A DNA stretch of 64,000 bases from Candidatus Komeilibacteria bacterium (GCA_048538275.1 JBLYPW010000001.1:113248-177247), one strand, 5' to 3'; numbered from the stretch's first letter, positions 2,868-63,458 are shown. A program made the numbers and translations. Notes: generated by a model not told the origin, from the letters alone.

Positions 2868-3882
2868 GGAATAACTTGATTTTTTTCATAAAATTAACAA
2901 TTTTTTCGTTATTCTCTTTTTTAATTAAGTACCGACCAATAAGAGAAACGATAATCATGCCGGTTACAACTTTCCATCTATAACCAGCATATATATTCCA
3001 AATTTTTGCCATACCAAGCTCCATAAGATATGGCCAAGTAATAATGGCTGTAAGGGCGATAATTAATCCTGTCGTTTTTCCAGCACCAATTTTTTTGGTT
3101 AGGTATTGCATAGCGACAGTCGCACTTCCTATAGTAGAAACTGCTAATGCAAAAATAACAACTAAAAGTAAGATGCCTAAAAACAAAGTTGGTTTAAAAA
3201 ATAAGCCAGTTAGTACAACAAAAGTCATGTATAATCCAAACCAAAAACCACCCCAAAGACTGAGTCTTATTTGGTTTTCTTTTTGCTCAAACCTTTGCCA
3301 CATCATAGGATCGGTGAACACTCCGGTTATAATACCTAATAATCCTAAGGGGAATACCCACTTAATCCCAGCTTCTGTTATGAGCTGTAAATTGGGGTTA
3401 ATCGTAAAATTACTTATTATAATAGAAGAAACTGCCAGCAAGACAACCGCAGAAATTTGTAAAGAATAGTATCCTAAATCAGATAAAACACTTCCTCTTA
3501 AGCCATATTTATAAATAAATAATAAAATAGCTAAAGATAAAAATATAATGGAAGGCACGCTAAAACTATTATCTATAAAATGAAAAGACGCCACATCATG
3601 ACCGCCCCCTAATCCTATAAGTAGGGCCTGCATATTCATAATGATGGCCATCGCCGCAATAAATAATGAAAATAAAATTAAAGGAATAAAATTGATCCAT
3701 TTCTCAAACCCTCTAATTTTTACTTTCATGTAGCCAAATAATGGCATAGCCAAGATATTACCAATAACCCAAACAAGGGCTGGAACTATACCATAAGTAT
3801 ACATAAAAGCTATTGTTGCTATCATGCTTACACCCCAAGACCACGAAGCGCCAAGGCTTATTCCAACTCTGCGGTAACTCAT
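2854..3882 (-). CDS. polytopic integral membrane protein, unknown function
   Basis: About 9-10 hydrophobic helices in the translation; overlaps the upstream gene by 14 nt. Confidence 0.5.
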   Translation of the reverse strand: MSYRRVGISLGASWSWGVSMIATIAFMYTYGIVPALVWVIGNILAMPLFGYMKVKIRGFEKWINFIPLILFSLFIAAMAIIMNMQALLIGLGGGHDVASFHFIDNSFSVPSIIFLSLAILLFIYKYGLRGSVLSDLGYYSLQISAVVLLAVSSIIISNFTINPNLQLITEAGIKWVFPLGLLGIITGVFTDPMMWQRFEQKENQIRLSLWGGFWFGLYMTFVVLTGLFFKPTLFLGILLLVVIFALAVSTIGSATVAMQYLTKKIGAGKTTGLIIALTAIITWPYLMELGMAKIWNIYAGYRWKVVTGMIIVSLIGRYLIKKENNEKIVNFMKKIKLFHEHE

Positions 3883-4684: not shown

Positions 4685-6250
4685 ATGGACAACATAAATT
4701 TACAAACCAAAAAGATTTTTCTCTATGCTCGTAAATCCACGGACGAACCCGAAAGGCAGGTTTTGAGCATTGAAGCGCAAATGTTTGAGTTGCGGGAATT
4801 TGCCAAAAAAGAGGGTTTGAATATCGTCCGTGAATTTGTGGAAAGCAAAACCGCCAAAGAACCAGGCAGAGAGATTTTTAATGACATGATCGCAAGCATA
4901 GAGAAAAATGAAGCCGAAGGAATTTTAGCGTGGCACCCTGACCGCCTTGCTCGTAATTCCATAGACGGCGGACGAATAATTTATTTGGTGGATACTGGAA
5001 AAATTACCACGCTAAAATTTCCCACTTTTTGGTTTGATCCGACACCGCAGGGAAAATTTATGTTATCCATTGCTTTTGGGCAATCAAAATATTATGTGGA
5101 TAATCTTTCGGAAAACATAAAGAGGGGTATTCGCCAGAAATTGCGAAATGGAATATGGCCCGCTTGGGCGCCACTTGGCTATATAAACGACAAAAACGCC
5201 CGCTGTATCGCCGTGGATAAAGAAAATGCAAAGTATATCAAGCGGGCATTTGAAATGTACGCGACTGGCGAATACCCCCTCGCTCAAATCCGAAAGATTA
5301 TCAATTCCTTGGGCTTGGTTGGCAAGAAAGGCAAAAAGCTTTCCGTCTCAAATTATCAGTATATGCTCAAGAATAAAATCTATTATGGAATGATTGAATA
5401 TAACGGTGAAATGTATGACGGAAAGCATGAACCGATTATCACAAAGAAACTTTTTGATTCCGTTCAAGAAGTGATGGCGAACAAGAGCAAACCAAAATCG
5501 CCAAAACTCAAACCTTATGTTTTTAGAGGATTTTTCCGTTGTGGAGAGTGCGGTTGTTTCATTACTACCGAAACACAAAAAGGACACAATTATTTGCGTT
5601 GCACCAAACGGAAAAATCCTTGCACACAAAAATATGTCCGCGAGGAAATCATCACTTCTCAAATAAAGGAAGAAATCAAAAAAGTTTCTTTGTCTTCCGC
5701 TTGGGCAAACGCTTCAATCAATTATTTTGAAAATGAAAAAATGAAAATTGCCCAAGCGGAAAGCTCTTTCGCCCAAAAAGCGAGAGATGAGCTTGTGGAA
5801 ATAGAAACAAAGCTTGATCGTTTGCTTGATTTACAACTGGACGGCAATTTGTCGCAAGCGGAATATACCGCTAAAAAGCACAAGCTCATTCTCGCTAAAA
5901 AAGATATGGAAGAAAAAATCACCGCTTTTGGGCGAAAGAGCAATAATCGGTTCGAACTTGCCATTGCCTTTCTAAAAGAAGCCAATCAAGCCGAAAAATA
6001 CGCTCAACAAGAAAATCCCGAAAGGATTCGGGATTTTCTCAAAAAGATTGGTTCGAACTTCCGTATTGCCGACCGCACTTTGGTTTTGGATTTCAAAAAT
6101 GACTTCAAAATTGCGGAAAAATACCATGCCGAGGCGCTTTGCGCCGAGGCTGTTTCTTACGATTTCACAAAAAGTGAAAATTGGCGGAGGAGGCGGGATT
6201 CGAACCCGCGATACCTTGCGGTATGCCTGCACTCCAAGCAGGTGCACTAG
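4685..6250 (+). CDS. large serine recombinase (resolvase/invertase N-domain + recombinase domain + zinc ribbon)
   Basis: N-terminal YARKSTDEPERQVLSIEAQ (catalytic Ser region), recombinase domain, CGECG..C zinc ribbon. The 3' end runs through repeat B into tRNA-Ser antisense. Confidence 0.85.
   Translation: MDNINLQTKKIFLYARKSTDEPERQVLSIEAQMFELREFAKKEGLNIVREFVESKTAKEPGREIFNDMIASIEKNEAEGILAWHPDRLARNSIDGGRIIYLVDTGKITTLKFPTFWFDPTPQGKFMLSIAFGQSKYYVDNLSENIKRGIRQKLRNGIWPAWAPLGYINDKNARCIAVDKENAKYIKRAFEMYATGEYPLAQIRKIINSLGLVGKKGKKLSVSNYQYMLKNKIYYGMIEYNGEMYDGKHEPIITKKLFDSVQEVMANKSKPKSPKLKPYVFRGFFRCGECGCFITTETQKGHNYLRCTKRKNPCTQKYVREEIITSQIKEEIKKVSLSSAWANASINYFENEKMKIAQAESSFAQKARDELVEIETKLDRLLDLQLDGNLSQAEYTAKKHKLILAKKDMEEKITAFGRKSNNRFELAIAFLKEANQAEKYAQQENPERIRDFLKKIGSNFRIADRTLVLDFKNDFKIAEKYHAEALCAEAVSYDFTKSENWRRRRDSNPRYLAVCLHSKQVH
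6058..6186. repeat. arm B plus core aaattggcgg directly abutting the tRNA-Ser 3' end (attR-like)
   Basis: Reverse complement of 4437-4566; the core overlaps the tRNA acceptor 3' strand. Confidence 0.8.
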
Positions 6251-6269
6251 ACCACTATGCGACCCCTCC
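6182..6269 (-). tRNA. tRNA-Ser (anticodon GGA), class II with long variable arm, CCA encoded
   Basis: rc = GGAGGGGTCGCATAGTGGTCTAGTGCACCTGCTTGGAGTGCAGG...GCGGGTTCGAATCCCGCCTCCTCCGCCA. Manual fold gives a 7-bp acceptor stem, anticodon loop TTGGAGT, variable hairpin and T-loop TTCGAAT. Confidence 0.85.
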
Positions 6270-20781: not shown

Positions 20782-22863
20782 CTACTCAAGGTGGATTGTA
20801 TTCTGTATTTGGTTTATTTTTTTTGCTATTAAAGGATGTTTTTTTAATTTCTTGTCATCGTTTAGTATATCTTGGACAGCGTTTTGGGCTTCTTTGACCA
20901 GGGTGATATTAGTAATGGCCTGGTAAAGTAAATTATTCATAAAGCCTGATTGTGTATCACCATAAAATTCACCAGCACCACGTTGCTTTAAATCGGCTTC
21001 CGCTAAAGCAAAGCCATCATTAGTGCGTACCAAAGTCTGTAATCGTTCTAGAGTGCGGGGAGAATTGTTATTACTCAATAAAAAGCAATAAGCTTGATTG
21101 TCACCTCGGCCTACGCGTCCGCGAAATTGGTGTAGTTGGGCTAAACCAAAACGGTCAGCACCTTCTATCATCATGATCGTGGCATTGGGTACGTCAACCC
21201 CAACCTCTATGACGGAAGTGGCTACTAAGATGTTAATTTTGTTAGCTTGGAAGTCAGCCATGACTTTGGCTTTGTCCTCGGCTTTTAATTTTCCATGCAG
21301 CAAAGCAACGGAACGGTGTGGGAATATTTCTTCGTTGAGATGTTTATATTCGGCAGTAACAGATTTTACGCCCAATTTATCTGATTCATCAATTAAAGGG
21401 CAAACGACAAATACCTGATGTCCGGCGTCTAGCTGTTTGTTTATAAATTCATAAGTAACTCGTCTTTGTTGATCGGTGACTAATTTTGTGATTATCGGTT
21501 TGCGGCCAGCCGGTTTGGTTTTTAGAAGTGAGATATTTAGATTGCCATAGATAGCCAATGCCAAGGTGCGGGGGATTGGCGTGGCAGTCAAGGATAGAAA
21601 GTGTGGCATAGTGTCGGGGTCACCGGATTGTTCTTGTAATTGTTGGCGTTGTTTGACGCCAAAGCGATGTTGTTCATCCACTATTACTAAGCCTAAATTG
21701 GCGAAATTTATATTTTTTTGAATGAGGGCATGAGTACCGATAATAAAGTTAATTTCTCCTTTAGATAAGGCTTTACTTATAGCGACTTTGCTGATATTTT
21801 TTGCTTTTGTTTGCCCGGCTATTAGCCGTTGATTTTGTGTTATTAGTCCGTATTGCCAAGGCACAGAGGGCCATAATTTACAAATAGTTTGCCAATGTTG
21901 TTCTGCTAAGATAGCGGTTGGCGCCATCAGAGCTACTTGATAACCGTTAATAATTGCATCATAGGCTGCCAAAGCTGCTACTACAGTTTTACCGGAGCCG
22001 ACATCACCATTGAGCAATCTGTTCATGGGTTGGCCGCTATTCATATCTTTGATGATTTCCCAGCCAGCTCTTTTTTGATCCGGAGTTAGCTGGAAGGGAA
22101 GACTATCAACAAATTCCTTTATCTCTTTTTGTTTGAATTCAATAGCTGGTGCCGTTTGTTCTGCTAGCTGATTTTTGATGAGTTGATTTTGTAATTGGAG
22201 TAAAAATATTTGATTGAATTGTAGGCGGCGGCGAGCATCTAGCATATTATCATTGTCGTCTGGAAAATGAATTTGCATTAATGCTTCTCGTAGATTCAAT
22301 AAATGATATTTTTGACGAATGTCAGCGGGCAGCCAATCTTTTATTTGTGTAATAGCTGGTAAACAGCTTTTGACTATAAAGCGTAGTTGTTTCTGGGTTA
22401 GTTTTTCTGTACTACTATAAATTGGTACTAGGCGCCCGGTGTGCGTAGTTTGTTCTTGAGCTTTTTCATAAGAAGGATTATTCATTTGGCGACCCAGTAG
22501 ATCGCCAGCTACTTTACCAGCCAATAAAATATCATCACCGATTTTGAAAGTTTTTGTTATATAAGGTTGATTAAACCACACTACTTTTAGTGAACCGCTG
22601 TCATCGTTGACTAAGGCTTCAGTGATAGTGAGTTTGCGATGACGGGCGCGACGATTGGCGAGTAGTTCAATGCGGGCACGTACTGTAGTGAGTTCATCAA
22701 TATTTAAGTCCGCTATCGGTTTTATTTGACTAAAATCGTCATAACGTACTGGCAGGTGCCAAAGCATATCTGCTACGGTATTGATGCCAATTTTTTTTAA
22801 GCGCGTGGCAATAGTTTTTCCCACGCGATTGACGGATTCTACTTTTGTTTCTAAAGTTAACAT
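20782..22863 (-). CDS. recG: ATP-dependent DNA helicase RecG
   Basis: N-terminal wedge domain; helicase motifs GDVGSGKT, DEQHRFGV, LSLTATPIPRTLA; 693 aa. Confidence 0.9.
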   Translation of the reverse strand: MLTLETKVESVNRVGKTIATRLKKIGINTVADMLWHLPVRYDDFSQIKPIADLNIDELTTVRARIELLANRRARHRKLTITEALVNDDSGSLKVVWFNQPYITKTFKIGDDILLAGKVAGDLLGRQMNNPSYEKAQEQTTHTGRLVPIYSSTEKLTQKQLRFIVKSCLPAITQIKDWLPADIRQKYHLLNLREALMQIHFPDDNDNMLDARRRLQFNQIFLLQLQNQLIKNQLAEQTAPAIEFKQKEIKEFVDSLPFQLTPDQKRAGWEIIKDMNSGQPMNRLLNGDVGSGKTVVAALAAYDAIINGYQVALMAPTAILAEQHWQTICKLWPSVPWQYGLITQNQRLIAGQTKAKNISKVAISKALSKGEINFIIGTHALIQKNINFANLGLVIVDEQHRFGVKQRQQLQEQSGDPDTMPHFLSLTATPIPRTLALAIYGNLNISLLKTKPAGRKPIITKLVTDQQRRVTYEFINKQLDAGHQVFVVCPLIDESDKLGVKSVTAEYKHLNEEIFPHRSVALLHGKLKAEDKAKVMADFQANKINILVATSVIEVGVDVPNATIMMIEGADRFGLAQLHQFRGRVGRGDNQAYCFLLSNNNSPRTLERLQTLVRTNDGFALAEADLKQRGAGEFYGDTQSGFMNNLLYQAITNITLVKEAQNAVQDILNDDKKLKKHPLIAKKINQIQNTIHLE

Positions 22864-22968
22864 ATCATAATTGTAGCAAAATAATAGGTAAAAAAATAGG
22901 CTAGCTACAGGTTTATTGTTGGATATCCAAATTTAAGGTAAACTAAATATAGTTATTAGTTTTATTTT

Positions 22969-23727
22969 ATGTATTCAACAAATATCGATTATAAAAAATT
23001 GTATGATAGGGTAGGTGGTTTGATTGGCTGGGATTTTAGTAATTTACAGGTTGAAACAGAAGACAAAAAGTGGAATTTTTATAAAGAGGTCGTAGCCAAA
23101 GCAAAATCTAATTTTCGGTTATTGGATATTGGTACAGGGGGCGGGGAGGCGGTTTTAAAAATTAGAAATAATTTTACTGAAATAATTGGTATTGATTTTT
23201 CTGTAAATATGATAATGACTGCGAAGGCAAATTTGAAAAAAAGCAAAGCGACTAATGTCATTTTCAAACTTATGGATGCTAAACAATTAGAATTTCAAGA
23301 TAATTATTTTGATATAGTATCTGATCGGCATTGTGAGTTTTCGGCTTTTGAAATAGCTAGAGTATTAAAGCCGGGCGGTTATTTTTTAACTCAACAGGTT
23401 AGCGAGGGTGATAAATTGAATATTAAGCAAGCTTTTGGTCGAGGACAGGACTGGGGGGTGAAGGAAGGCATAGCTATGAAAAAATATATTACAAAACTTA
23501 AAACTGCTGGGTTTGTTAATATCAAGGTTTATACTTATAATGTCAAGGAATGGTATAAGAGCGCAGAAGATCTAATATTTTTATTAAGGCATACTCCGAT
23601 TATTCCAAATTTTGGTAAAAAACCAGAAGATTTTGCGGTATTAGATCGCTTTATAGCAGATAATAGTAGTCAGAGCGGTATTTTGACTAACTCTAAGAGA
23701 TATATGTTAATAGCACGGCTTGCATAA
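22969..23727 (+). CDS. class I SAM-dependent methyltransferase
   Basis: Motif I LLDIGTGGGEAVL and the motif II/III spacing typical of Methyltransf_11/25. Confidence 0.7.
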   Translation: MYSTNIDYKKLYDRVGGLIGWDFSNLQVETEDKKWNFYKEVVAKAKSNFRLLDIGTGGGEAVLKIRNNFTEIIGIDFSVNMIMTAKANLKKSKATNVIFKLMDAKQLEFQDNYFDIVSDRHCEFSAFEIARVLKPGGYFLTQQVSEGDKLNIKQAFGRGQDWGVKEGIAMKKYITKLKTAGFVNIKVYTYNVKEWYKSAEDLIFLLRHTPIIPNFGKKPEDFAVLDRFIADNSSQSGILTNSKRYMLIARLA

Positions 23728-23811
23728 GTGTGAGCAGATTGACCGGTGTTGTGCTTTTGTTGTGTTGTTGATGATTTGGTATATAGAATATTTGTTATAA
23801 AAGGCATAATT

Positions 23812-23840
23812 AAAAAAGAGAGATGCTCTCTTTTTTATTT
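23812..23840 (+). terminator. rho-independent terminator downstream of the methyltransferase gene
   Basis: Hairpin aagagag-atg-ctctctt followed by a T6 run. Confidence 0.5.
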
Positions 23841-24278
23841 TCAGTTATTTAGTCATTGAGCGGTAGTAAATGACTGACCAGGGTTGATTCATGAGTCAGC
23901 GCAGTTTGTTAGCTTGTTATTTTTTTGATATTTTTTAAAATTGTAGAAACCAGCGGGTATTATTGGAAGGCGGTTTCATGTGCTTATGTTTTGTAGTTAG
24001 TTCATCAATATTCAAGTTGTCTATTTGTTTTAATACATGAACATAATATATAAGTTTATGATTAGCACTCAATAGCTTCTATTTGCTTAATGGCCTTTAT
24101 GTTTAAGTTTTAGTGAGGGCGAATGGTGGAGAGAGATTTTTAGCGCTTCCTCTTAACTTTGTTCAGAGTTGTCTTGTTCAGGTCAGCAGCTCACTTACCA
24201 TCGGCAACTTAGCTAATATTTGCTTGGTTCGCTTCTGTCCGCCCGTCAGACGGGTCCCGTTTGAATTCCTGTTCTAAA

Positions 24279-24314
24279 AGAACGCGCCCCATACGATAGT
24301 ATGGGGCGCGTTCT
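24279..24314 (-). terminator. strong hairpin (13-bp perfect stem) immediately 3' of tRNA-Ser(GCU)
   Basis: Stem agaacgcgcccca/tggggcgcgttct directly abutting the tRNA CCA end, followed on the minus strand by TTTT. Confidence 0.6.
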
Positions 24315-24316
24315 TC

Positions 24317-24410
24317 TGGCGGAGAGAGAGGGATTCGAACCCTCGCGCCGGCTAAACACCGACCTAACGGTTTAGCAAACCGTCCCCTTCAGCCGCTTGG
24401 GTATCTCTCC
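24317..24410 (-). tRNA. tRNA-Ser (anticodon GCU), class II, CCA encoded
   Basis: rc = GGAGAGATACCCAAGCGGCTGAAGGGGACGGTTTGCTAAACCGT...GAGGGTTCGAATCCCTCTCTCTCCGCCA. Anticodon loop TTGCTAA; long variable arm. Confidence 0.85.
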
Positions 24411-24800
24411 ACGTCCTAGTCACTCTTCGCCGCTCCATGTTTCAGGTCAAGCCTGAACCATTCCGCTTAACTCAGAGTGCCTACTCCTTGCTGCTCATTC
24501 CTTACCCTTCGCTTTGCTCAGGGTCAAGCAACTCGCAGGGTTGATATACTTTGTCACTCTTCGCCGCTACGTCGTAGTCGGGTTTCGCCACTGCGTGCGA
24601 CAGATCAAGTCTGTCTCACTGCGTTTGACTCAACCACGCCTACTCCTTGCTGGTCGTGACTTAACCATTCACTTCGTTCATGGCCCAAGTCACTCCCAGT
24701 TTTTTTCAGTTTGATCGGGTTTCGCCACTGCGTGCGACAGATCAAGTCTGTCTCACTGCGTTTGACTCAACCACGCCTACTCCTTGCCTCGCACGTTTAT
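24411..24800. repeat. repeat family in the tRNA leader region: a ~104-nt unit at 24553-24656, a partial copy at 24716-24787, and a ~44-nt unit at 24500-24543
   Basis: 24553-24656 is identical to 25349-25452. The 24-nt acgtcctagtcactcttcgccgct abuts the tRNA 5' end here and again at 25341. Confidence 0.7.
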
Positions 24801-24939
24801 TTTTCGTTTTGCTTTACTTGCTTAGAACCAAGCAATGCTCGGGAGGATTATTTATATTTTTTTCCAGGCTACTTTGTTTTTTTAGCACTTTTCTTTGATT
24901 TATTCCTGGTCATTATATCAAAGCTTTAGCGCAGGTAAA

Positions 24940-25029
24940 TGGCGGAGAGGGTGGGATTCGAACCCACGGAACCCGTGAAGGTTCAACAGTTTTCAAGACT
25001 GTCGCATTCGACCACTCTGCCACCTCTCC
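24940..25029 (-). tRNA. tRNA-Ser (anticodon UGA), class II, CCA encoded
   Basis: rc = GGAGAGGTGGCAGAGTGGTCGAATGCGACAGTCTTGAAAACTGTTGAACCTTCACGGGTTCCGTGGGTTCGAATCCCACCCTCTCCGCCA. Confidence 0.85.
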
Positions 25030-25304
25030 CGAATGTATTTTCTACCTTGGCCACTTTTTAGAAATATTTCCCTTTGTCTAGCTTCTGTATAGGTGATGTA
25101 TGTTTCATAGAATAATATTTTCCATGGTCTCTTTGTTTTTGTCGATTTTGTCTTCCCGGCGTTATGAGATTTTAATCTGGTTGCAGGACTGTTTTCCCGA
25201 GATGACCCTATGTAGATATTATTATCATTATTAATTAATGTGTAAGTGCAAGGCATATTTTTGTGAATAGTTTTTCCGCCTGAGGCGGACCCGCCTCTGG
25301 CGGG

Positions 25305-25341
25305 CAAGACTGTCGCATTCGACCACTCTGCCACCTCTCCA
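25305..25341 (-). pseudogene. 5'-half fragment of tRNA-Ser(UGA) (positions 1-35), truncated inside the anticodon
   Basis: A 35/35 match to the 5' part of the 24940-25029 tRNA ends at G35. It is followed on the minus strand by two GC hairpins (cccgcc/ggcggg and tccgcc/ggcgga) instead of the rest of the tRNA. Confidence 0.6.
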
Positions 25342-25520
25342 CGTCCTAGTCACTCTTCGCCGCTACGTCGTAGTCGGGTTTCGCCACTGCGTGCGACAGA
25401 TCAAGTCTGTCTCACTGCGTTTGACTCAACCACGCCTACTCCTTGCTGGTCGCCTGGTCATATGAGGCTCGTTCCTTACCCTTCGTTCTGCTTAGGGTCA
25501 AGCAACTCGCCGGGTTTTTC
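25341..25520. repeat. second copy of the tRNA-leader repeat units (104-nt unit 25349-25452; 44-nt unit 25476-25518)
   Basis: Near-identical to 24553-24656 and 24500-24543. Confidence 0.7.
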
Positions 25521-25609
25521 TTAATTAGTCTAGATTGATTATTTTTCTAGAATGTAAAGCCTTATTAAGGGTATAAAATCTTTAGGCAGTATAATATTTT
25601 TACCCATCA

Positions 25610-26164
25610 TTGTCAATATGTGATAAAGATACTATAATAGTGATAGATAAATATATGGCAAAAGGTGAAAAACAGTATGTAGATGAACAGTATGTGGGGC
25701 AGGAGATTATGTCTTGGGCTGTTCCTGAATACCCGCGATATCAGCGTGATTTGCGCTGGTATGTTATAGCTGTCATTGTGGCTATTTTATTTTTATTATA
25801 CTCCGTGCTGACGGCCAATCTTTTATTTGGTTTGATTATAATTATGGCGGCGGTAACTATTTTCTACTTTGATCGTCATCAAGCGCCCATGGTTGATTTT
25901 GTTATTACCAATCAAGGTTTTAAATTGCATGATAAGTTTTATGAATTTAGTGGAGTTAAATCTTTTTATATAATTTTTGAACCGCCGCATGTACAAAGTT
26001 TGTTTATTGAATTTAATAATAGTTTGCGACCGCGTTTAAATATTCCTTTACAAGACCACGATCCTTCATCTGTGCGTAAAGTATTGAAAGAATATTTAAA
26101 GGAGGACTTGGAAAGAGAAGGCGAGCCTATTAGCGAGGCTTTGGGTAGAATATTTAAGTTATAA
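25610..26164 (+). CDS. hypothetical 2-TM membrane protein
   Basis: Two adjacent hydrophobic helices (VIAVIVAILFLLYSVL and LLFGLIIIMAAVTIF); no motif I recognise. Confidence 0.4.
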   Translation: MSICDKDTIIVIDKYMAKGEKQYVDEQYVGQEIMSWAVPEYPRYQRDLRWYVIAVIVAILFLLYSVLTANLLFGLIIIMAAVTIFYFDRHQAPMVDFVITNQGFKLHDKFYEFSGVKSFYIIFEPPHVQSLFIEFNNSLRPRLNIPLQDHDPSSVRKVLKEYLKEDLEREGEPISEALGRIFKL

Positions 26165-26249
26165 TCCAAATTTTTTAACGAGGTTGACAATTGCACTTTT
26201 TTATTTTACACTTCTCAAAGTTCGGGAAGTTTTTTTAATCAATATTAAT

Positions 26250-26326
26250 GTCCTCATAGCTCAACTGGATAGAGCGTCAGCTTGCGGTGCTGAAGGTTGG
26301 AGGTTCGAGTCCTCCTGAGGACGCCA
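26250..26326 (+). tRNA. tRNA-Arg with anticodon GCG, CCA encoded
   Basis: GTCCTCA acceptor pairing with TGAGGAC; anticodon stem TCAGC/GCTGA with loop TTGCGGT; T-loop TTCGAGT. C35 and G36 are consistent with Arg identity. Confidence 0.8.
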
Positions 26327-26349
26327 TTTATATATAAAAACCCGGCTCT

Positions 26350-26667
26350 TTATTGGGAGTCGAGTTTTTTTGTATTTTTTATTTGGCCATTGGGAGTGAA
26401 AATATATCTCACCCAGAGCGATTGCATGATAATAGCACCATTAGGTAAAGTGCGGATGATTTTTTTATTATCCAGATCTAGTACACGATTGTGAATTTTG
26501 GGATAATTATCATTTGGTCGATTAACCAGTTCAATGGAAAATGACCAGTGATTGCCATTTTCATAAGTTTGCCATTTTACCACCCAGCCCTCCTTGTCCG
26601 GCTCGGTATGTAGCAAATTTTTGATTTGGCAATACCAGCCGATGATATTGAGGTTTGACGGTAACAT
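26350..26667 (-). CDS. hypothetical small protein
   Basis: 105-aa ORF with no recognisable motif. Confidence 0.35.
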   Translation of the reverse strand: MLPSNLNIIGWYCQIKNLLHTEPDKEGWVVKWQTYENGNHWSFSIELVNRPNDNYPKIHNRVLDLDNKKIIRTLPNGAIIMQSLWVRYIFTPNGQIKNTKKLDSQ

Positions 26668-26819
26668 AAAGAGCTCCTTGTTTTTGTACGATTCCTCTTA
26701 TATTGTAACGAATTGAGCGAGGAAGTCAAAAATGTTATTTTATCTTTGAATTTAGTATAATAATGTTACCTTTCATGATTTTTTTCGTATTATTAAGTAG
26801 AAAGGGAATTTAAGTAATA

Positions 26820-27386
26820 ATGGTGAATTTTATGTCCGAGGCTGCCATCATCAAAGCTTGTCAGCAAGGCGATAGCGAGCAATTTACACTTTTATATGAT
26901 AAATATGTCAGCGCGATTTATAAGTTTGTTTATTATCGCGTCAGTCACCGTGAGGTGGCAGAGGATTTGACTAGCCAAATCTGGCTTAAAGTTTTAGATC
27001 GGCTGGATCAATATAAAATAAAAAATAGTAGTTTTAGCGCTTGGCTATATCGTATAGCTCGCAATGCCGTAATAGATTATTATCGTACTAGCCGTCAAGA
27101 ATTTGATATAAGTACTATGGAATTGAGTAGTAAAGAGGACTTACAAAGGGAAGCAGAAATAAAAGATAGTTTAAACAGGGTGCAAAAATATTTACAAGAG
27201 TTGCCGGACGATATGCGTGACATTGTTATTATGCGTTTGTGGGATCAGCTTTCCTATGAAGAAATTGCTGGTATTATGGATAAATCAGAAGCTAGTTGTA
27301 AAATGATGATGTCGCGTGCTTTGCAGAAAATTCGTGCTCAAGGATTATTAGTTTTATTATTTATTTCTTTATTATTAAATAATTAA
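26820..27386 (+). CDS. ECF-type sigma-70 family sigma factor
   Basis: Region 2 (YKFVYYRV...AEDLTSQIWLKV, WLYRIARNAVIDYYR) and region 4 HTH (LSYEEIAGIMDKSEASCKMMMSRALQKIR). Confidence 0.8.
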   Translation: MVNFMSEAAIIKACQQGDSEQFTLLYDKYVSAIYKFVYYRVSHREVAEDLTSQIWLKVLDRLDQYKIKNSSFSAWLYRIARNAVIDYYRTSRQEFDISTMELSSKEDLQREAEIKDSLNRVQKYLQELPDDMRDIVIMRLWDQLSYEEIAGIMDKSEASCKMMMSRALQKIRAQGLLVLLFISLLLNN

Positions 27387-27396
27387 TTTTATTTTT

Positions 27397-28938
27397 ATGA
27401 CAGATAATATAAAAAATATTTTAGAGGATCTCTATATTATTGATGATAAATTACGTCAGTATGAAAAGCAGTTAATTCCTATTGTTAAAGAGTTATTAGC
27501 TGCAAAGCCACAACTCGTAGCTGATAAGGAGTGGCAGGAGAATTTGCGTGGGCAGCTGTGGGAGCGTTTGCAAAATAAGCAATCCGGTTATTCAGTTGGT
27601 TATCGTTTTGGGTGGCAAAAAATGTTTTATGGTCTGGGTGGTTTAGCTTTATTAATATTATTGGTAGTGCCTTGGTATGGTTCCAATCAATCGGTTATTT
27701 TGGAGGAGTGGACGGCTCAGCCTCAGTTTACCGCTTTAAATGCCAAGGCATTTGGAAGTTTTGTTAGTAATGTAGATCTGAGTGCTGATGGGAGAGGTTC
27801 GGCGGCGGAGAGTGACAATAATAGTGTAGCACCAGCTGGATATGGTGGCGGTGGTGGTGATATGGCCCAGCCTATGATGGTAGAGGGAAAGATGATAATG
27901 CCACGAGAAATCAATAAATACAATTTTGTTTATGAGGGTGAAGCATTAGATTTGTCCGCACCTATGGTAAAAGTATTGCGACGAGTAAAAGGTGATCAAG
28001 TGGCCCAACAATTAGCCGGTTGGCTCGCTTCCGTTAAATTTGAGAACTTGGACTTAAGCTCTTTTAAGCAAACCAAAGTTCAGCAGTTAACATTAGTTGA
28101 AGACAGACCATTTGGTTATTCTATGAATTTGGATTTTATCAACGGTAATGTATATATTGGTCAATATTGGGAGCAATGGCAAGAAGCCAGTGTTTGTCAG
28201 GATGATGCTTGTTGGCAAGCAAGACGATTGCATGAGGAAGATGTGCCAGCCGATGATGTTTTGATTGGTTTGGCCAATAGCTGGTTAGCGCAGCGTAATA
28301 TAGATATGAGTGCTTATGGACAGCCGAGCGTGGAGAATGAATGGCGTAGGTTTTATTTACTGACTGATAATAAAGCGGATTATTATATACCGGAAGTAAT
28401 ATCAGTAATTTATCCTTTGCAGCTGGAAGGAAAGACTGTATATGATCAGGGTGGTAATGTTTATGGATTGCGCGTGCCTATCAACATCATAAATAATAAG
28501 GTGGCTGGCGTTTCTGGATTGTCTACTCAACAATATGAAAGTAGTGATTATCCGGCGATCACCGATAGCGAGGCGGTATTGCAATTGGCCGCGCGAGGCG
28601 GTATGCAACATTATTATTATCCAGATAATGCTACCACGGTGGATGTAAAATTAGGCACTCCATATGTTGGTTATGTTCAATATTGGAATTATCAAAATAA
28701 TATAAGTGAAGAATTTTATGTGCCAGCCTTGATTTTCCCAATCACAGAAATCCCAGATGACATAAATTTTTATCAGAAAAAAGTGGTAGTACCATTAGCG
28801 CAAGATATGTTTGATAGGTTTGCTTCATATCCTAAAGACGAGCCACCGGTACGTATCATGGAAATGGGTTCGGCTGATGATATTGAAGCATTGTCTCCAG
28901 CAGACTTGCCAGTAGCGGAAGAAACAATCATTGAATAA
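27397..28938 (+). CDS. putative anti-sigma factor (cytoplasmic N-terminus, one TM, large extracytoplasmic domain)
   Basis: Immediately downstream of the ECF sigma gene; single TM helix FYGLGGLALLILLVVPWYG; topology typical of anti-sigma partners. Confidence 0.45.
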   Translation: MTDNIKNILEDLYIIDDKLRQYEKQLIPIVKELLAAKPQLVADKEWQENLRGQLWERLQNKQSGYSVGYRFGWQKMFYGLGGLALLILLVVPWYGSNQSVILEEWTAQPQFTALNAKAFGSFVSNVDLSADGRGSAAESDNNSVAPAGYGGGGGDMAQPMMVEGKMIMPREINKYNFVYEGEALDLSAPMVKVLRRVKGDQVAQQLAGWLASVKFENLDLSSFKQTKVQQLTLVEDRPFGYSMNLDFINGNVYIGQYWEQWQEASVCQDDACWQARRLHEEDVPADDVLIGLANSWLAQRNIDMSAYGQPSVENEWRRFYLLTDNKADYYIPEVISVIYPLQLEGKTVYDQGGNVYGLRVPINIINNKVAGVSGLSTQQYESSDYPAITDSEAVLQLAARGGMQHYYYPDNATTVDVKLGTPYVGYVQYWNYQNNISEEFYVPALIFPITEIPDDINFYQKKVVVPLAQDMFDRFASYPKDEPPVRIMEMGSADDIEALSPADLPVAEETIIE

Positions 28939-63227: not shown

Positions 63228-63458
63228 GGGCGCATAGCTCAATGGTAGAGTGCTTTTTGCCTTGATGTGGCTATGAGCATCCATATAGCTTATTATCCGA
63301 AAGCGTCAATCTTTATAGATTGGAGAGTGAGGGAGAATTACCCTCGTGTGGCGATATGCATTCGCTGTGTATCAGTAAATAGTTGCATTGAGGACAGTTA
63401 ATTAACTGTGGTATGAATACTCGGAAAGTGGGTATCGGTTCGAATCCGATTGCGTCCA
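63228..63458 (+). tRNA. candidate tRNA gene interrupted by a ~158-nt intervening sequence at the anticodon-arm position (possible intron)
   Basis: The 5' part GGGCGCATAGCTCAATGGTAGAGTGC is a canonical acceptor + D-arm. The 3' part GAAAGTGGGTATCGGTTCGAATCCGATTGCGTCCA gives a T-arm (ATCGG/CCGAT, loop TTCGAAT) and an acceptor strand that pairs 7/7 with the 5' end. No CCA is encoded, and the anticodon is not resolvable. Confidence 0.4.

Follow-up and report, generated by a model that had tools for sequence, protein, structure and literature searches.

Organization of the tRNA-Ser region

The DNA analysed here is a 64,000-nucleotide (nt) stretch from Candidatus Komeilibacteria bacterium (GCA_048538275.1 JBLYPW010000001.1:113248-177247), termed the window, and all coordinates are counted from its first letter. 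Near 25 kb the window contains two genes for serine transfer RNA (tRNA-Ser), a small GIY-YIG nuclease gene that ends inside one of them, a displaced copy of the 5′ part of the same tRNA gene interrupted by a 30-nt two-hairpin module, and a set of hairpin repeat units, all on the minus strand. The nuclease gene is present and the region is very probably one instance of a conserved cassette. The operon and cassette features are as follows, in the direction of transcription.

25588..25616, minus strand: promoter-like site TTGACA-17-TATACT (consensus scan, 11/12), 5′ of the entire tRNA-Ser operon
25305..25340, minus strand: nt 1-36 of tRNA-Ser(UGA) as a displaced exact copy that stops after anticodon base 2 (..CUUG) (blastn E=1e-15)
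25275..25304, minus strand: 30-nt module of two hairpins, CCCGCCAGAGGCGGG-T-CCGCCTCAGGCGG plus A, interrupting the displaced copy at its anticodon loop (covariance model)
25266..25274, minus strand: remnant of tRNA nt 37-45 (AAAACTATT vs AAAACTGTT), 3′ of the module (read from the sequence)
24993..25256, minus strand: GIY-YIG nuclease gene, 87 codons from ATG (Pfam PF01541, homologues, AlphaFold2, substitution rates)
24940..25029, minus strand: tRNA-Ser(UGA), intact (ARAGORN; Rfam tRNA model, 63 bits)
24912..24939, minus strand: second promoter-like site TTTACC-16-TG-TATAAT (consensus scan, 10/12), directly 3′ of tRNA-Ser(UGA)
24317..24410, minus strand: tRNA-Ser(GCU) (ARAGORN and Rfam)
24278..24315, minus strand: likely operon terminator, a perfect 17-base-pair GC-rich hairpin followed by TTTT (inverted repeat and sequence)
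6182-6269, minus strand: tRNA-Ser(GGA), the third isoacceptor (ARAGORN and Rfam)

The stretch can be read as a single minus-strand tRNA-Ser operon, which would run from the promoter near 25600 through tRNA-Ser(UGA) and tRNA-Ser(GCU) to the terminator at 24315-24278. The terminator hairpin was missed by the consensus scan. An equivalent of the TTGACA-17-TATACT site is also located 5′ of tRNA-Ser in the relative L095. The tRNA-Ser(GGA) gene at 6.2 kb has a plain AT-rich leader free of hairpin units, so a hairpin leader is not a general property of tRNA-Ser genes. An earlier note, made from the sequence alone, had listed the three tRNA-Ser genes and a tRNA 5′-half fragment, and both observations agree with the searches above. 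By eye, a GC-richer stretch at 24125-24270 on the minus strand, 3′ of the tRNA-Ser(GCU) terminator, ends in AAATCTCTCTCCACCA; it resembles the tRNA-Ser(GCU) 3′ end and may represent another orphan tRNA piece.

The GIY-YIG nuclease

The earlier note had described the region as an ORF-free island with no credible coding sequence, which is incorrect. The open reading frame (ORF) at 25256..24993 encodes an 87-residue protein that matches PF01541 with 54.1 bits (cut-off 22.6, E=2e-14) over profile positions 2-74 of 78. Among 23 homologues, Y15, G17, R27, H31, and E63 are invariant, and Y5 and N32 are conserved in at least 90%. The AlphaFold2 model (mean pLDDT, the predicted local distance difference test, 89.8; element order E-E-H-H-E-H-H) has an alpha/beta fold with a three-stranded sheet flanked by helices, as expected for the GIY-YIG superfamily. 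Its nearest folds found by Foldseek are UPF0213 BH0048 (PDB 1ZG2) and Slx1 nuclease domains, with modest similarity (Foldseek E ~6e-3 to 0.1, query TM-score 0.5-0.6; profile E=5e-6), and the sole sequence-level match in the PDB is UPF0213 EF2693 (PDB 1YWL). Sequence and predicted structure together indicate that the protein is a member of the GIY-YIG nuclease superfamily, of a minimal Slx1/UPF0213 type of ~85 residues. The same protein is deposited as 'GIY-YIG nuclease family protein [Candidatus Komeilibacteria bacterium]', and NCBIfam contains no family for it. Pairs of moderately diverged homologous ORFs give ratios of nonsynonymous to synonymous substitution rates (dN/dS) of 0.04-0.14, so the nuclease protein is maintained by selection.

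The catalytic domain comprises residues 1-75 of 87, and the remaining tail is encoded by the tRNA gene. Particularly, the last 11 codons and the stop codon of the ORF are located inside tRNA-Ser(UGA), with the TGA anticodon serving as the stop. This arrangement leaves no room for a separate promoter between the ORF and the tRNA, which must therefore be co-transcribed with the nuclease messenger RNA (mRNA), and the fusion places tRNA and mRNA in one precursor. Cleavage of this precursor by RNase P would strip the stop codon from the nuclease ORF.

Gene callers often start such ORFs 25-50 codons early, and the extension is then the translated displaced tRNA half plus module. The false N-terminal extension in the window (24993-25334, minus strand) reads MAEWSNATVLPARGGSASGG..., and the same is seen in the database proteins P0045-P0061 and others.

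Distribution of the cassette

Relatives of the nuclease were sought in 185,579 species genomes, one genome per species, by a pattern-based, non-exhaustive scan combined with protein alignment. The scan confirmed 291 stretches that encode a relative and returned 80 loci, which span more than 10 phyla, including Patescibacteria, Omnitrophota, Planctomycetota, Elusimicrobia, Thermodesulfobacteriota, Margulisiibacteriota, and the Bacteroidota/Chlorobi group. At the protein level, a profile search recovered 1,956 clusters (50% identity) at E<=1e-10, mostly of 80-130 residues. None of 50,697 phage records matched the nuclease in a tblastn search. At L086 238-545, a contig assigned by binning to a Thorarchaeota archaeon carries a homologue with a module-like match 3′ of its ORF, which could reflect mis-binning or cross-domain transfer.

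The link between the nuclease gene and tRNA genes is conserved in these loci. In the first contexts fetched, in which 4 homologues led to 13 loci, the ORF enters tRNA-Ser(UGA) in all except L007, a short contig where the tRNA runs off the end. In the same loci, the sequence 5′ of the ORF is a copy of nt 1-36 of the genome's own tRNA, followed by a near-invariant GC-rich sequence. In the larger set, a same-strand tRNA is found at the end of the ORF in 65 of the 80 loci, its start within -80 to +120 nt. Fifty-nine of these are tRNA-Ser, comprising Ser(UGA) in 49 loci, Ser(CGA) in 8, and Ser(GCU) in 2; the others are Gln in 2 loci and Arg, Pro, Met, and His in 1 each. The in-frame stop lies within the tRNA in 39 of the 65 loci, and the displaced and intact 5′ halves are identical in most genomes.

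Neither the module nor the fusion of a small GIY-YIG gene to tRNA-Ser was found described in our search of open-access papers and bioRxiv preprints, and a description elsewhere is possible. A survey of tRNA introns in Patescibacteria does not mention the cassette arrangement (PMC13011429).

The displaced tRNA half and the two-hairpin module

The cassette in the window is composed, in order, of the copy of tRNA nt 1-36, the module between anticodon bases 2 and 3, the nt 37-45 remnant, and the nuclease ORF running into the intact tRNA. The module consensus, YCNGCC-nnn-GGCNGR, T, CCGCC-nnn-GGCGG, forms two adjacent hairpins. A covariance model of the module identifies a single match in the window (25304..25276, 50 bits, E=2e-11). 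Compensatory changes occur in 6 of its 11 pairs among 37 distinct variants; these were chosen for perfect pairing, and the diversity of pair types is all that counts as evidence here. In 0.5 Mb of fetched DNA, the model marks 81 places, 74 of them in the orientation of the ORF, and a module is present among the strong matches in 57 of the 80 loci (~68 when weaker matches are included).

The boundaries of the module are defined by 33 cases whose left flank could be anchored on the neighbouring tRNA. In 30 of them, the tRNA sequence resumes after exactly one extra base, so the module plus A constitutes a 30-nt insertion into the tRNA copy, and the resumed tRNA sequence implies that the displaced copy reaches to about nt 44. 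The insertion is located in the anticodon loop, after 36/37, in 23 of the 33 cases, in the D-loop in 8, and in the T-loop in 2, with TTG, TCG, or TTC before it and AAAA, AGAA, or AAAG after it. In some loci, the minimum-energy fold is a three-way junction made of the anticodon stem and the two hairpins. In addition, one to several modules are found in different loops of displaced copies in, for example, L066, L081, and L036.

Neither the module nor the hairpin repeat units described below match Rfam, in which the window was scanned at the gathering threshold and 23600-25800 at E<=10; this yielded tRNAs and chance hits only. No intron ribozyme was detected by Rfam over 23600-25800 at E<=10. Scanning viral contigs for the module returned 3 loci, none of which is a cassette.

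Insertion and rearrangement in related loci

Several loci carry the cassette in arrangements that bear on its history. In L029, the order is a 5′ piece, module, ORF, intact tRNA-Ser(UGA), a second module, and a 3′ piece. Put back together, the outer pieces make up a tRNA-Ser(UGA); their acceptor strands pair (GGAGGGT/ACCCTCC), and they are near-identical to the resident tRNA of the related L026, unlike the enclosed intact tRNA. As judged from this layout, L029 shows what appears to be an older tRNA-Ser split by insertion of the cassette, and it is the cleanest case.

Five tandem cassettes (5′ half, module, and ORF), with a period of 310 nt, precede one intact tRNA-Ser(UGA) at L001 1678-3315, on a 901-kb contig. 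At least two tandem cassettes are also present in L023 and L072. One of the L001 copies carries several substitutions near its 3′ end. Moreover, a mirror-image cassette is found at L091 2912-3310 and L092 692-1090, where an intact tRNA-Ser(GGA) is followed by the ORF and a T-arm fragment with the module in its T-loop.

The hairpin repeat units

The leader of the operon and the spacer between its tRNA genes contain two types of hairpin unit, a short one ('44') and a long one ('104').

25466..25519, minus strand: short hairpin unit '44B', 90% identical to 24493-24542; -19.1 kcal/mol, z -2.6
25341..25452, minus strand: repeat unit '104B', a 78-nt hairpin (25365-25442) plus a 24-nt tail abutting the displaced tRNA 5′ half (exact repeat, folding, alignment)
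24794..24846, minus strand: degenerate short hairpin unit '44C' (alignments)
24715..24793, minus strand: partial repeat unit '104C', exact over 73 nt (24715-24787) (exact repeat)
24657..24706, minus strand: diverged short hairpin unit '44D' (alignments, folding)
24553..24656, minus strand: repeat unit '104A', identical to 104B, with a 78-nt hairpin (24569-24646) (exact repeat, folding)
24492..24545, minus strand: short hairpin unit '44A' (repeat search, folding)
24411..24496, minus strand: diverged repeat unit '104E', a 77-nt hairpin (24411-24487) abutting the 5′ end of tRNA-Ser(GCU) (folding, alignment)

These are arranged as four composite units, each of which, in tRNA orientation, consists of a short hairpin followed by a long one. 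Unit I is located 5′ of the displaced 5′ half, and units II, III, and IV occupy the spacer between the tRNAs, with unit IV abutting tRNA-Ser(GCU). The 104-nt repeat reported in the earlier note is exact (24553-24656 = 25349-25452, 100% identity), with no match in any shuffle of the window, and its partial third copy is likewise exact over 24715-24787. The fourth, diverged version at 24411-24496, directly 5′ of tRNA-Ser(GCU), had been overlooked. The reported 44-nt unit is a real repeat, although it spans ~50 nt at 90% identity (24493-24542 vs 25467-25516) and has two further degenerate copies at ~24794-24846 and 24657-24706. An internal hairpin had also been noted within the 104-nt unit; it exists, and gacagatcaagtctgtc caps a longer hairpin of 78 nt, which has a CUUGA loop and stops 2 nt short of a tRNA 5′ end. 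The 24-nt unit lies directly against the 5′ ends of tRNA-Ser(GCU) and the 36-nt fragment, and not against that of the intact tRNA-Ser(UGA), as had been claimed for each tRNA.

The long hairpin exists in two diverged versions (units I/III vs unit IV), which are 72% identical. Between them, 23 pairs are kept, including 8 with double compensatory changes, and none is broken; this is matched by 2 of 500 shuffles, and slid controls give 0-1, with the covariation somewhat inflated by the derivation of the 23-pair structure from the two sequences compared. The four short units aligned jointly yield 5 consensus pairs only, from few sequences. In 4 of 4 units tested, the tRNA-sense strand folds 3.5-6.6 kcal/mol better than the antisense strand, which is expected if G-U pairs matter.

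Nucleotides 1-37 of tRNA-Ser(UGA), the same portion as the displaced copy in the cassette, can be aligned over their full length with the 5′ arms of the long hairpins (GGAGTAGG to CTTGA). For version A, the alignment has z=3.87, and 0 of 2000 dinucleotide shuffles are as good (p<0.0005); for version E, z=3.06 and p=0.0055. No such alignment is obtained between the 5′ arms and the 5′ halves of tRNA-Ser(GCU) or tRNA-Ser(GGA), nor for the 3′ arms. On balance, the repeats are slightly more likely than not to be fossils of the tRNA 5′ half.

The repeat units are missing from the leader of the nearest relative found, L095, as far as its contig reaches. In this relative, whose 169-residue neighbour protein is 50% identical, ~60 nt of AT-rich leader separate the homologous promoter from a tRNA-Ser. 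A blastn-short search of 95 fetched loci found no match to the units outside the window, and a metagenome scan for AAGGAGTAGGC-N40-70-GGCGAAGAGTGAC gave 0 matches. No target-site duplication is seen at the units. For both this organism and its nearest relative, the Logan short-read contigs (L094 1-200, L095 1-142) stop at the island edge, which fits repeats breaking the assembly.

The earlier note had offered three origins for the repeats, which the data support to different degrees. As duplicated leader or promoter modules, the units do lie in a transcribed leader and spacer, with the promoter-like sites elsewhere (25616..25588 and 24939..24912). They may or may not be a small noncoding RNA family: their hairpins covary (8 compensatory pairs) and the tRNA-sense strand folds better, and they have no Rfam family and were found nowhere else in the searches above. 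Scars of integration and excision come closest, as the displaced cassette arm is there and the 5′ arms of the units appear to be diverged tRNA 5′ halves; the scars would not be of the integrase type, since the 5′ part is copied and no integrase is present.

Proposed mechanism

We regard it as probable that the tRNA-Ser operon carries a homing-type selfish nuclease cassette accompanied by fossil displaced 5′ halves. For the cassette alone, our analysis places the chance that it is, or was, a homing-type mobile element at even or a little better. The nuclease would break the DNA of a tRNA gene at a loop, perhaps recognized as a branched or hairpin DNA structure and not through a long sequence, as the bare catalytic domain of the Slx1/UPF0213 type suggests. 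Recombinational repair from a cassette-bearing copy would then install the cassette and regenerate a working tRNA, leaving behind a displaced partial tRNA copy disabled by the module. Repeated rounds, or unequal exchange between copies, could give rise to tandem arrays and orphan 5′ halves.

The 104-nt units and their relatives may correspond to older orphan copies of tRNA-Ser(UGA) nt 1-37, each paired to a complementary 3′ arm, with recent exact duplicates of such orphans filling the leader and the spacer. Locking in a hairpin may keep an orphan 5′ half from competing for the tRNA 3′ half in the common precursor. Alternatively, the hairpins might have originated in a fold-back, palindrome-forming repair event centred on the anticodon loop.

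A number of observations weigh against mobility or against the fossil origin of the units. The nuclease consists of the catalytic domain alone, without the DNA-binding domain typical of homing endonucleases, which recognize a site of 14-40 base pairs, and the regenerated tRNA retains the presumed target site, so self-cutting must be avoided somehow. No closely related pair of occupied and empty genomes was found among the loci compared. In most loci the displaced copy equals the resident tRNA, which local duplication, or vertical inheritance with gene conversion, fits equally well. L046 and L068 have a layout like that of L029, but the acceptor strands of their outer pieces pair imperfectly, leaving L029 alone as a clean case, and five copies in L001 versus one in L003 could result from assembly collapse. 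For the repeat units, the tRNA similarity of the arms is moderate and the two tested arms are not independent. Three of the four units are located 3′ of tRNA-Ser(UGA), not 5′ of it, where displaced halves should gather; an extra segmental duplication must therefore be assumed, with which the exact 104-nt identity is consistent. The compensatory changes in the fold-back could also stem from a palindromic DNA origin. Finally, the copy number of the units is known for the window alone.

A more far-reaching version, which we put forward as doubtful, takes the minimal Slx1-like nuclease and the 30-nt module as an unrecognized mobile element that targets structure and inserts in the D-, anticodon, or T-loops of tRNA genes, between T-Y-S and R-A-A. 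Such an element would keep or bring a working tRNA, mark or kill the displaced copy with the module, and become undeletable through fusion to an essential single-copy tRNA; the hairpin repeats in the window would then be an evolved neutralization of orphan halves.

Alternative explanations

The cassette could instead be a fixed, domesticated, and immobile part of the tRNA-Ser unit, possibly an addiction or control device in which the nuclease or module disables other tRNA copies; expression of the essential tRNA would then be possible only along with the nuclease mRNA, and the host could not shed the gene. Strong purifying selection on the ORF would suit such a role, as would the stop codon inside the tRNA in 39 of 65 loci, the one to several modules in different loops of displaced copies (L066, L081, and L036), the split resident tRNA of L029 with a different tRNA beside the ORF, and the identity of displaced and intact 5′ halves within most genomes. 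We consider domestication unlikely, given the patchy distribution (291 stretches in 185,579 species genomes in the scan described above) and the several tRNA targets, tandem arrays, and mirror-image form, the last three of which point to continuing movement; installation of the module by the nuclease is moreover an assumption. Still less support goes to a decoy or antitoxin role, at the RNA level, of the upstream pseudo-tRNA and module against a nuclease whose substrate is tRNA-Ser RNA, in the manner of a type III toxin-antitoxin or an anticodon nuclease. A conserved structured RNA does lie directly 5′ of a small nuclease gene, with the module exactly in the anticodon loop. However, the characterized GIY-YIG enzymes are, to our knowledge, DNA nucleases, as fits the nearest folds, Slx1 and UPF0213; the partial tRNA duplication and the ORF-tRNA fusion are DNA-level features that a toxin-antitoxin does not need; and a single pseudo-tRNA with its module stands in place of tandem antitoxin repeats, with no terminator between RNA and ORF. 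We therefore hold this explanation to be very improbable.

Two further alternatives concern the repeats and the tRNA fragment. The 104/44-nt units might be fold-back DNA repeats, palindromic or similar to miniature inverted-repeat transposable elements (MITEs), that were inserted and duplicated near the tRNAs and are neither tRNA fossils nor functional RNA. This would explain the exact copies (two of 104 nt, a third of 73 nt), the fold-back over the whole length, the absence of units from the leader of the nearest relative, the lack of an Rfam match, and the short-read contigs of the organism and its relative that break at the island. We nevertheless judge it improbable. The units are confined to one locus in 64 kb, have no match in the 95 related loci or the metagenome scan, and show no target-site duplication; furthermore, folding favours the sense strand by 3.5-6.6 kcal/mol in each of the four units, and it is the 5′ arms, not the 3′ arms, that resemble tRNA-Ser(UGA) nt 1-37. 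Partial tRNA copies beside tRNA genes are a classic signature of integrase-type elements, and the fragment and repeats could accordingly be attachment-site scars of an integrase-type island or prophage excised from tRNA-Ser, for which the end of the GC-richer stretch at 24125-24270, resembling the 3′ end of tRNA-Ser(GCU), might also be cited. The portion duplicated here comes from the 5′ side of the tRNA, as far as the anticodon, and not from the 3′ end; the ORFs in 22000-27500 include no integrase; and dozens of unrelated genomes have the conserved module and GIY-YIG gene after such a fragment. These findings make an integrase origin barely credible, and for the 36-nt fragment it is effectively refuted.

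Comparison with known systems

The closest described system to the homing-type cassette favoured here is T4 SegB, a free-standing GIY-YIG homing endonuclease in a tRNA cluster. SegB cleaves tRNA genes, recognizing GGTTCRANTCC in the T-loop, and its gene is thereby copied into genomes that have no SegB (PMC2330249). In both cases a GIY-YIG gene is located among tRNA genes and outside introns, and the module in T-loop variants lies between GGTTC and GAATCC, comparable with the SegB motif. Consistent with a free-standing homing endonuclease, the cassette ORF abuts or overlaps a tRNA gene in 65 of the 80 loci, and Rfam detects no intron ribozyme in the window. SegB is more than twice as long as the cassette nuclease and contains a DNA-binding region. 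It is phage-borne, whereas the nuclease here is chromosomal and a bare catalytic domain of the Slx1/UPF0213 branch, and SegB lacks the two-hairpin module, the partial tRNA duplication, and the ORF-tRNA fusion.

Slx1 is a structure-specific nuclease for branched DNA, which works with Slx4 and carries a zinc-finger domain. Slx1 and UPF0213 proteins are closest to the cassette nuclease in fold and sequence, which fits a domain without a sequence-reading module and a target on stem-loops, although the similarity is modest and Slx1 has its Slx4 partner and zinc finger. We know of no linkage to tRNA genes for Slx1/UPF0213 proteins.

Group I introns occupy anticodon loops of bacterial tRNAs, including those of Patescibacteria, at sites 35/36 or 36/37, some with a nuclease gene; the families reported in tRNA introns are LAGLIDADG, PD-(D/E)XK, and HNH, not GIY-YIG (PMC13011429). 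The cassette shares with them an insertion at nearly the same position of the anticodon loop in the same host phylum, Patescibacteria, but contains no ribozyme according to Rfam, and no splicing is needed because an intact tRNA follows the cassette. Integrative elements likewise keep the target gene intact by means of a partial duplicate of the tRNA; their duplicate is of the 3′ end and their integration relies on a tyrosine or serine integrase, whereas here the 5′ part (the T-arm in the mirror form) is duplicated, by an element of ~0.3 kb without an integrase. With repetitive extragenic palindromic (REP) sequences and bacterial interspersed mosaic elements (BIMEs), the region has in common short GC-rich hairpin units, mosaically arranged within transcribed intergenic DNA, which holds for the module as well as for the 44/104 units. 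REP sequences are dispersed in hundreds of copies, whereas the module is tied to tRNA loops beside one gene family and the 44/104 units are found at a single locus.

If the homing-type interpretation is correct, ~2,000 clusters (50% identity, E<=1e-10) of tiny GIY-YIG genes, mostly labelled 'GIY-YIG nuclease family protein', would be explained as parasites of tRNA genes. They would constitute bacterial chromosomal counterparts of T4 SegB with a distinct anatomy, namely the loop module, the partial tRNA duplication, and the stop codon in the tRNA. They would also provide a case in which to test how a catalytic domain on its own locates its target, possibly via DNA structure, and would show an essential tRNA sharing one precursor with a nuclease mRNA. 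As regards annotation, short-read assemblies appear to break at the displaced tRNA pieces and modules, which also yield false N-terminal extensions, and the pieces can hide or mimic tRNA genes (L091, L092). Within the window, what was taken for an ORF-free repeat island would become the readable history of one tRNA gene.

Additional observations

At 63228-63458 on the plus strand, a tRNA-Gly(GCC) is apparently interrupted by ~155 nt just after the anticodon (Rfam tRNA model, 40.1 bits over 231 nt). It was missed by ARAGORN and by the gathering-threshold scan, the match to the tRNA model was lost when a smaller sub-window was scanned again, and no group I intron match was found at this site.

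Other insertions in tRNA loops were seen in further genomes. In two other Patescibacteria loci (L008 3318-3463, L015 ~3355-3515), GC-rich inserts of 45-110 nt are located in the T-loop of tRNA-Ser pseudo-fragments, between TTCGAA and GAATCC...CTCTCCGCCA, beside tRNA-Ser(UGA). A kinship of the window units with these inserts, suspected by eye, was dropped after shuffling tests gave p 0.05-0.99. A second palindromic type of insert, CCTGCC...GGCAGG, occupies D-loop positions of orphan tRNA 5′ fragments in L004/L020 (2878-2900, 3377-3470), L045, L067, L088, and L090, and two fragments with this D-loop insert are located 5′ of tRNA-Ser(GCU) in a metagenome-assembled genome of Omnitrophota.

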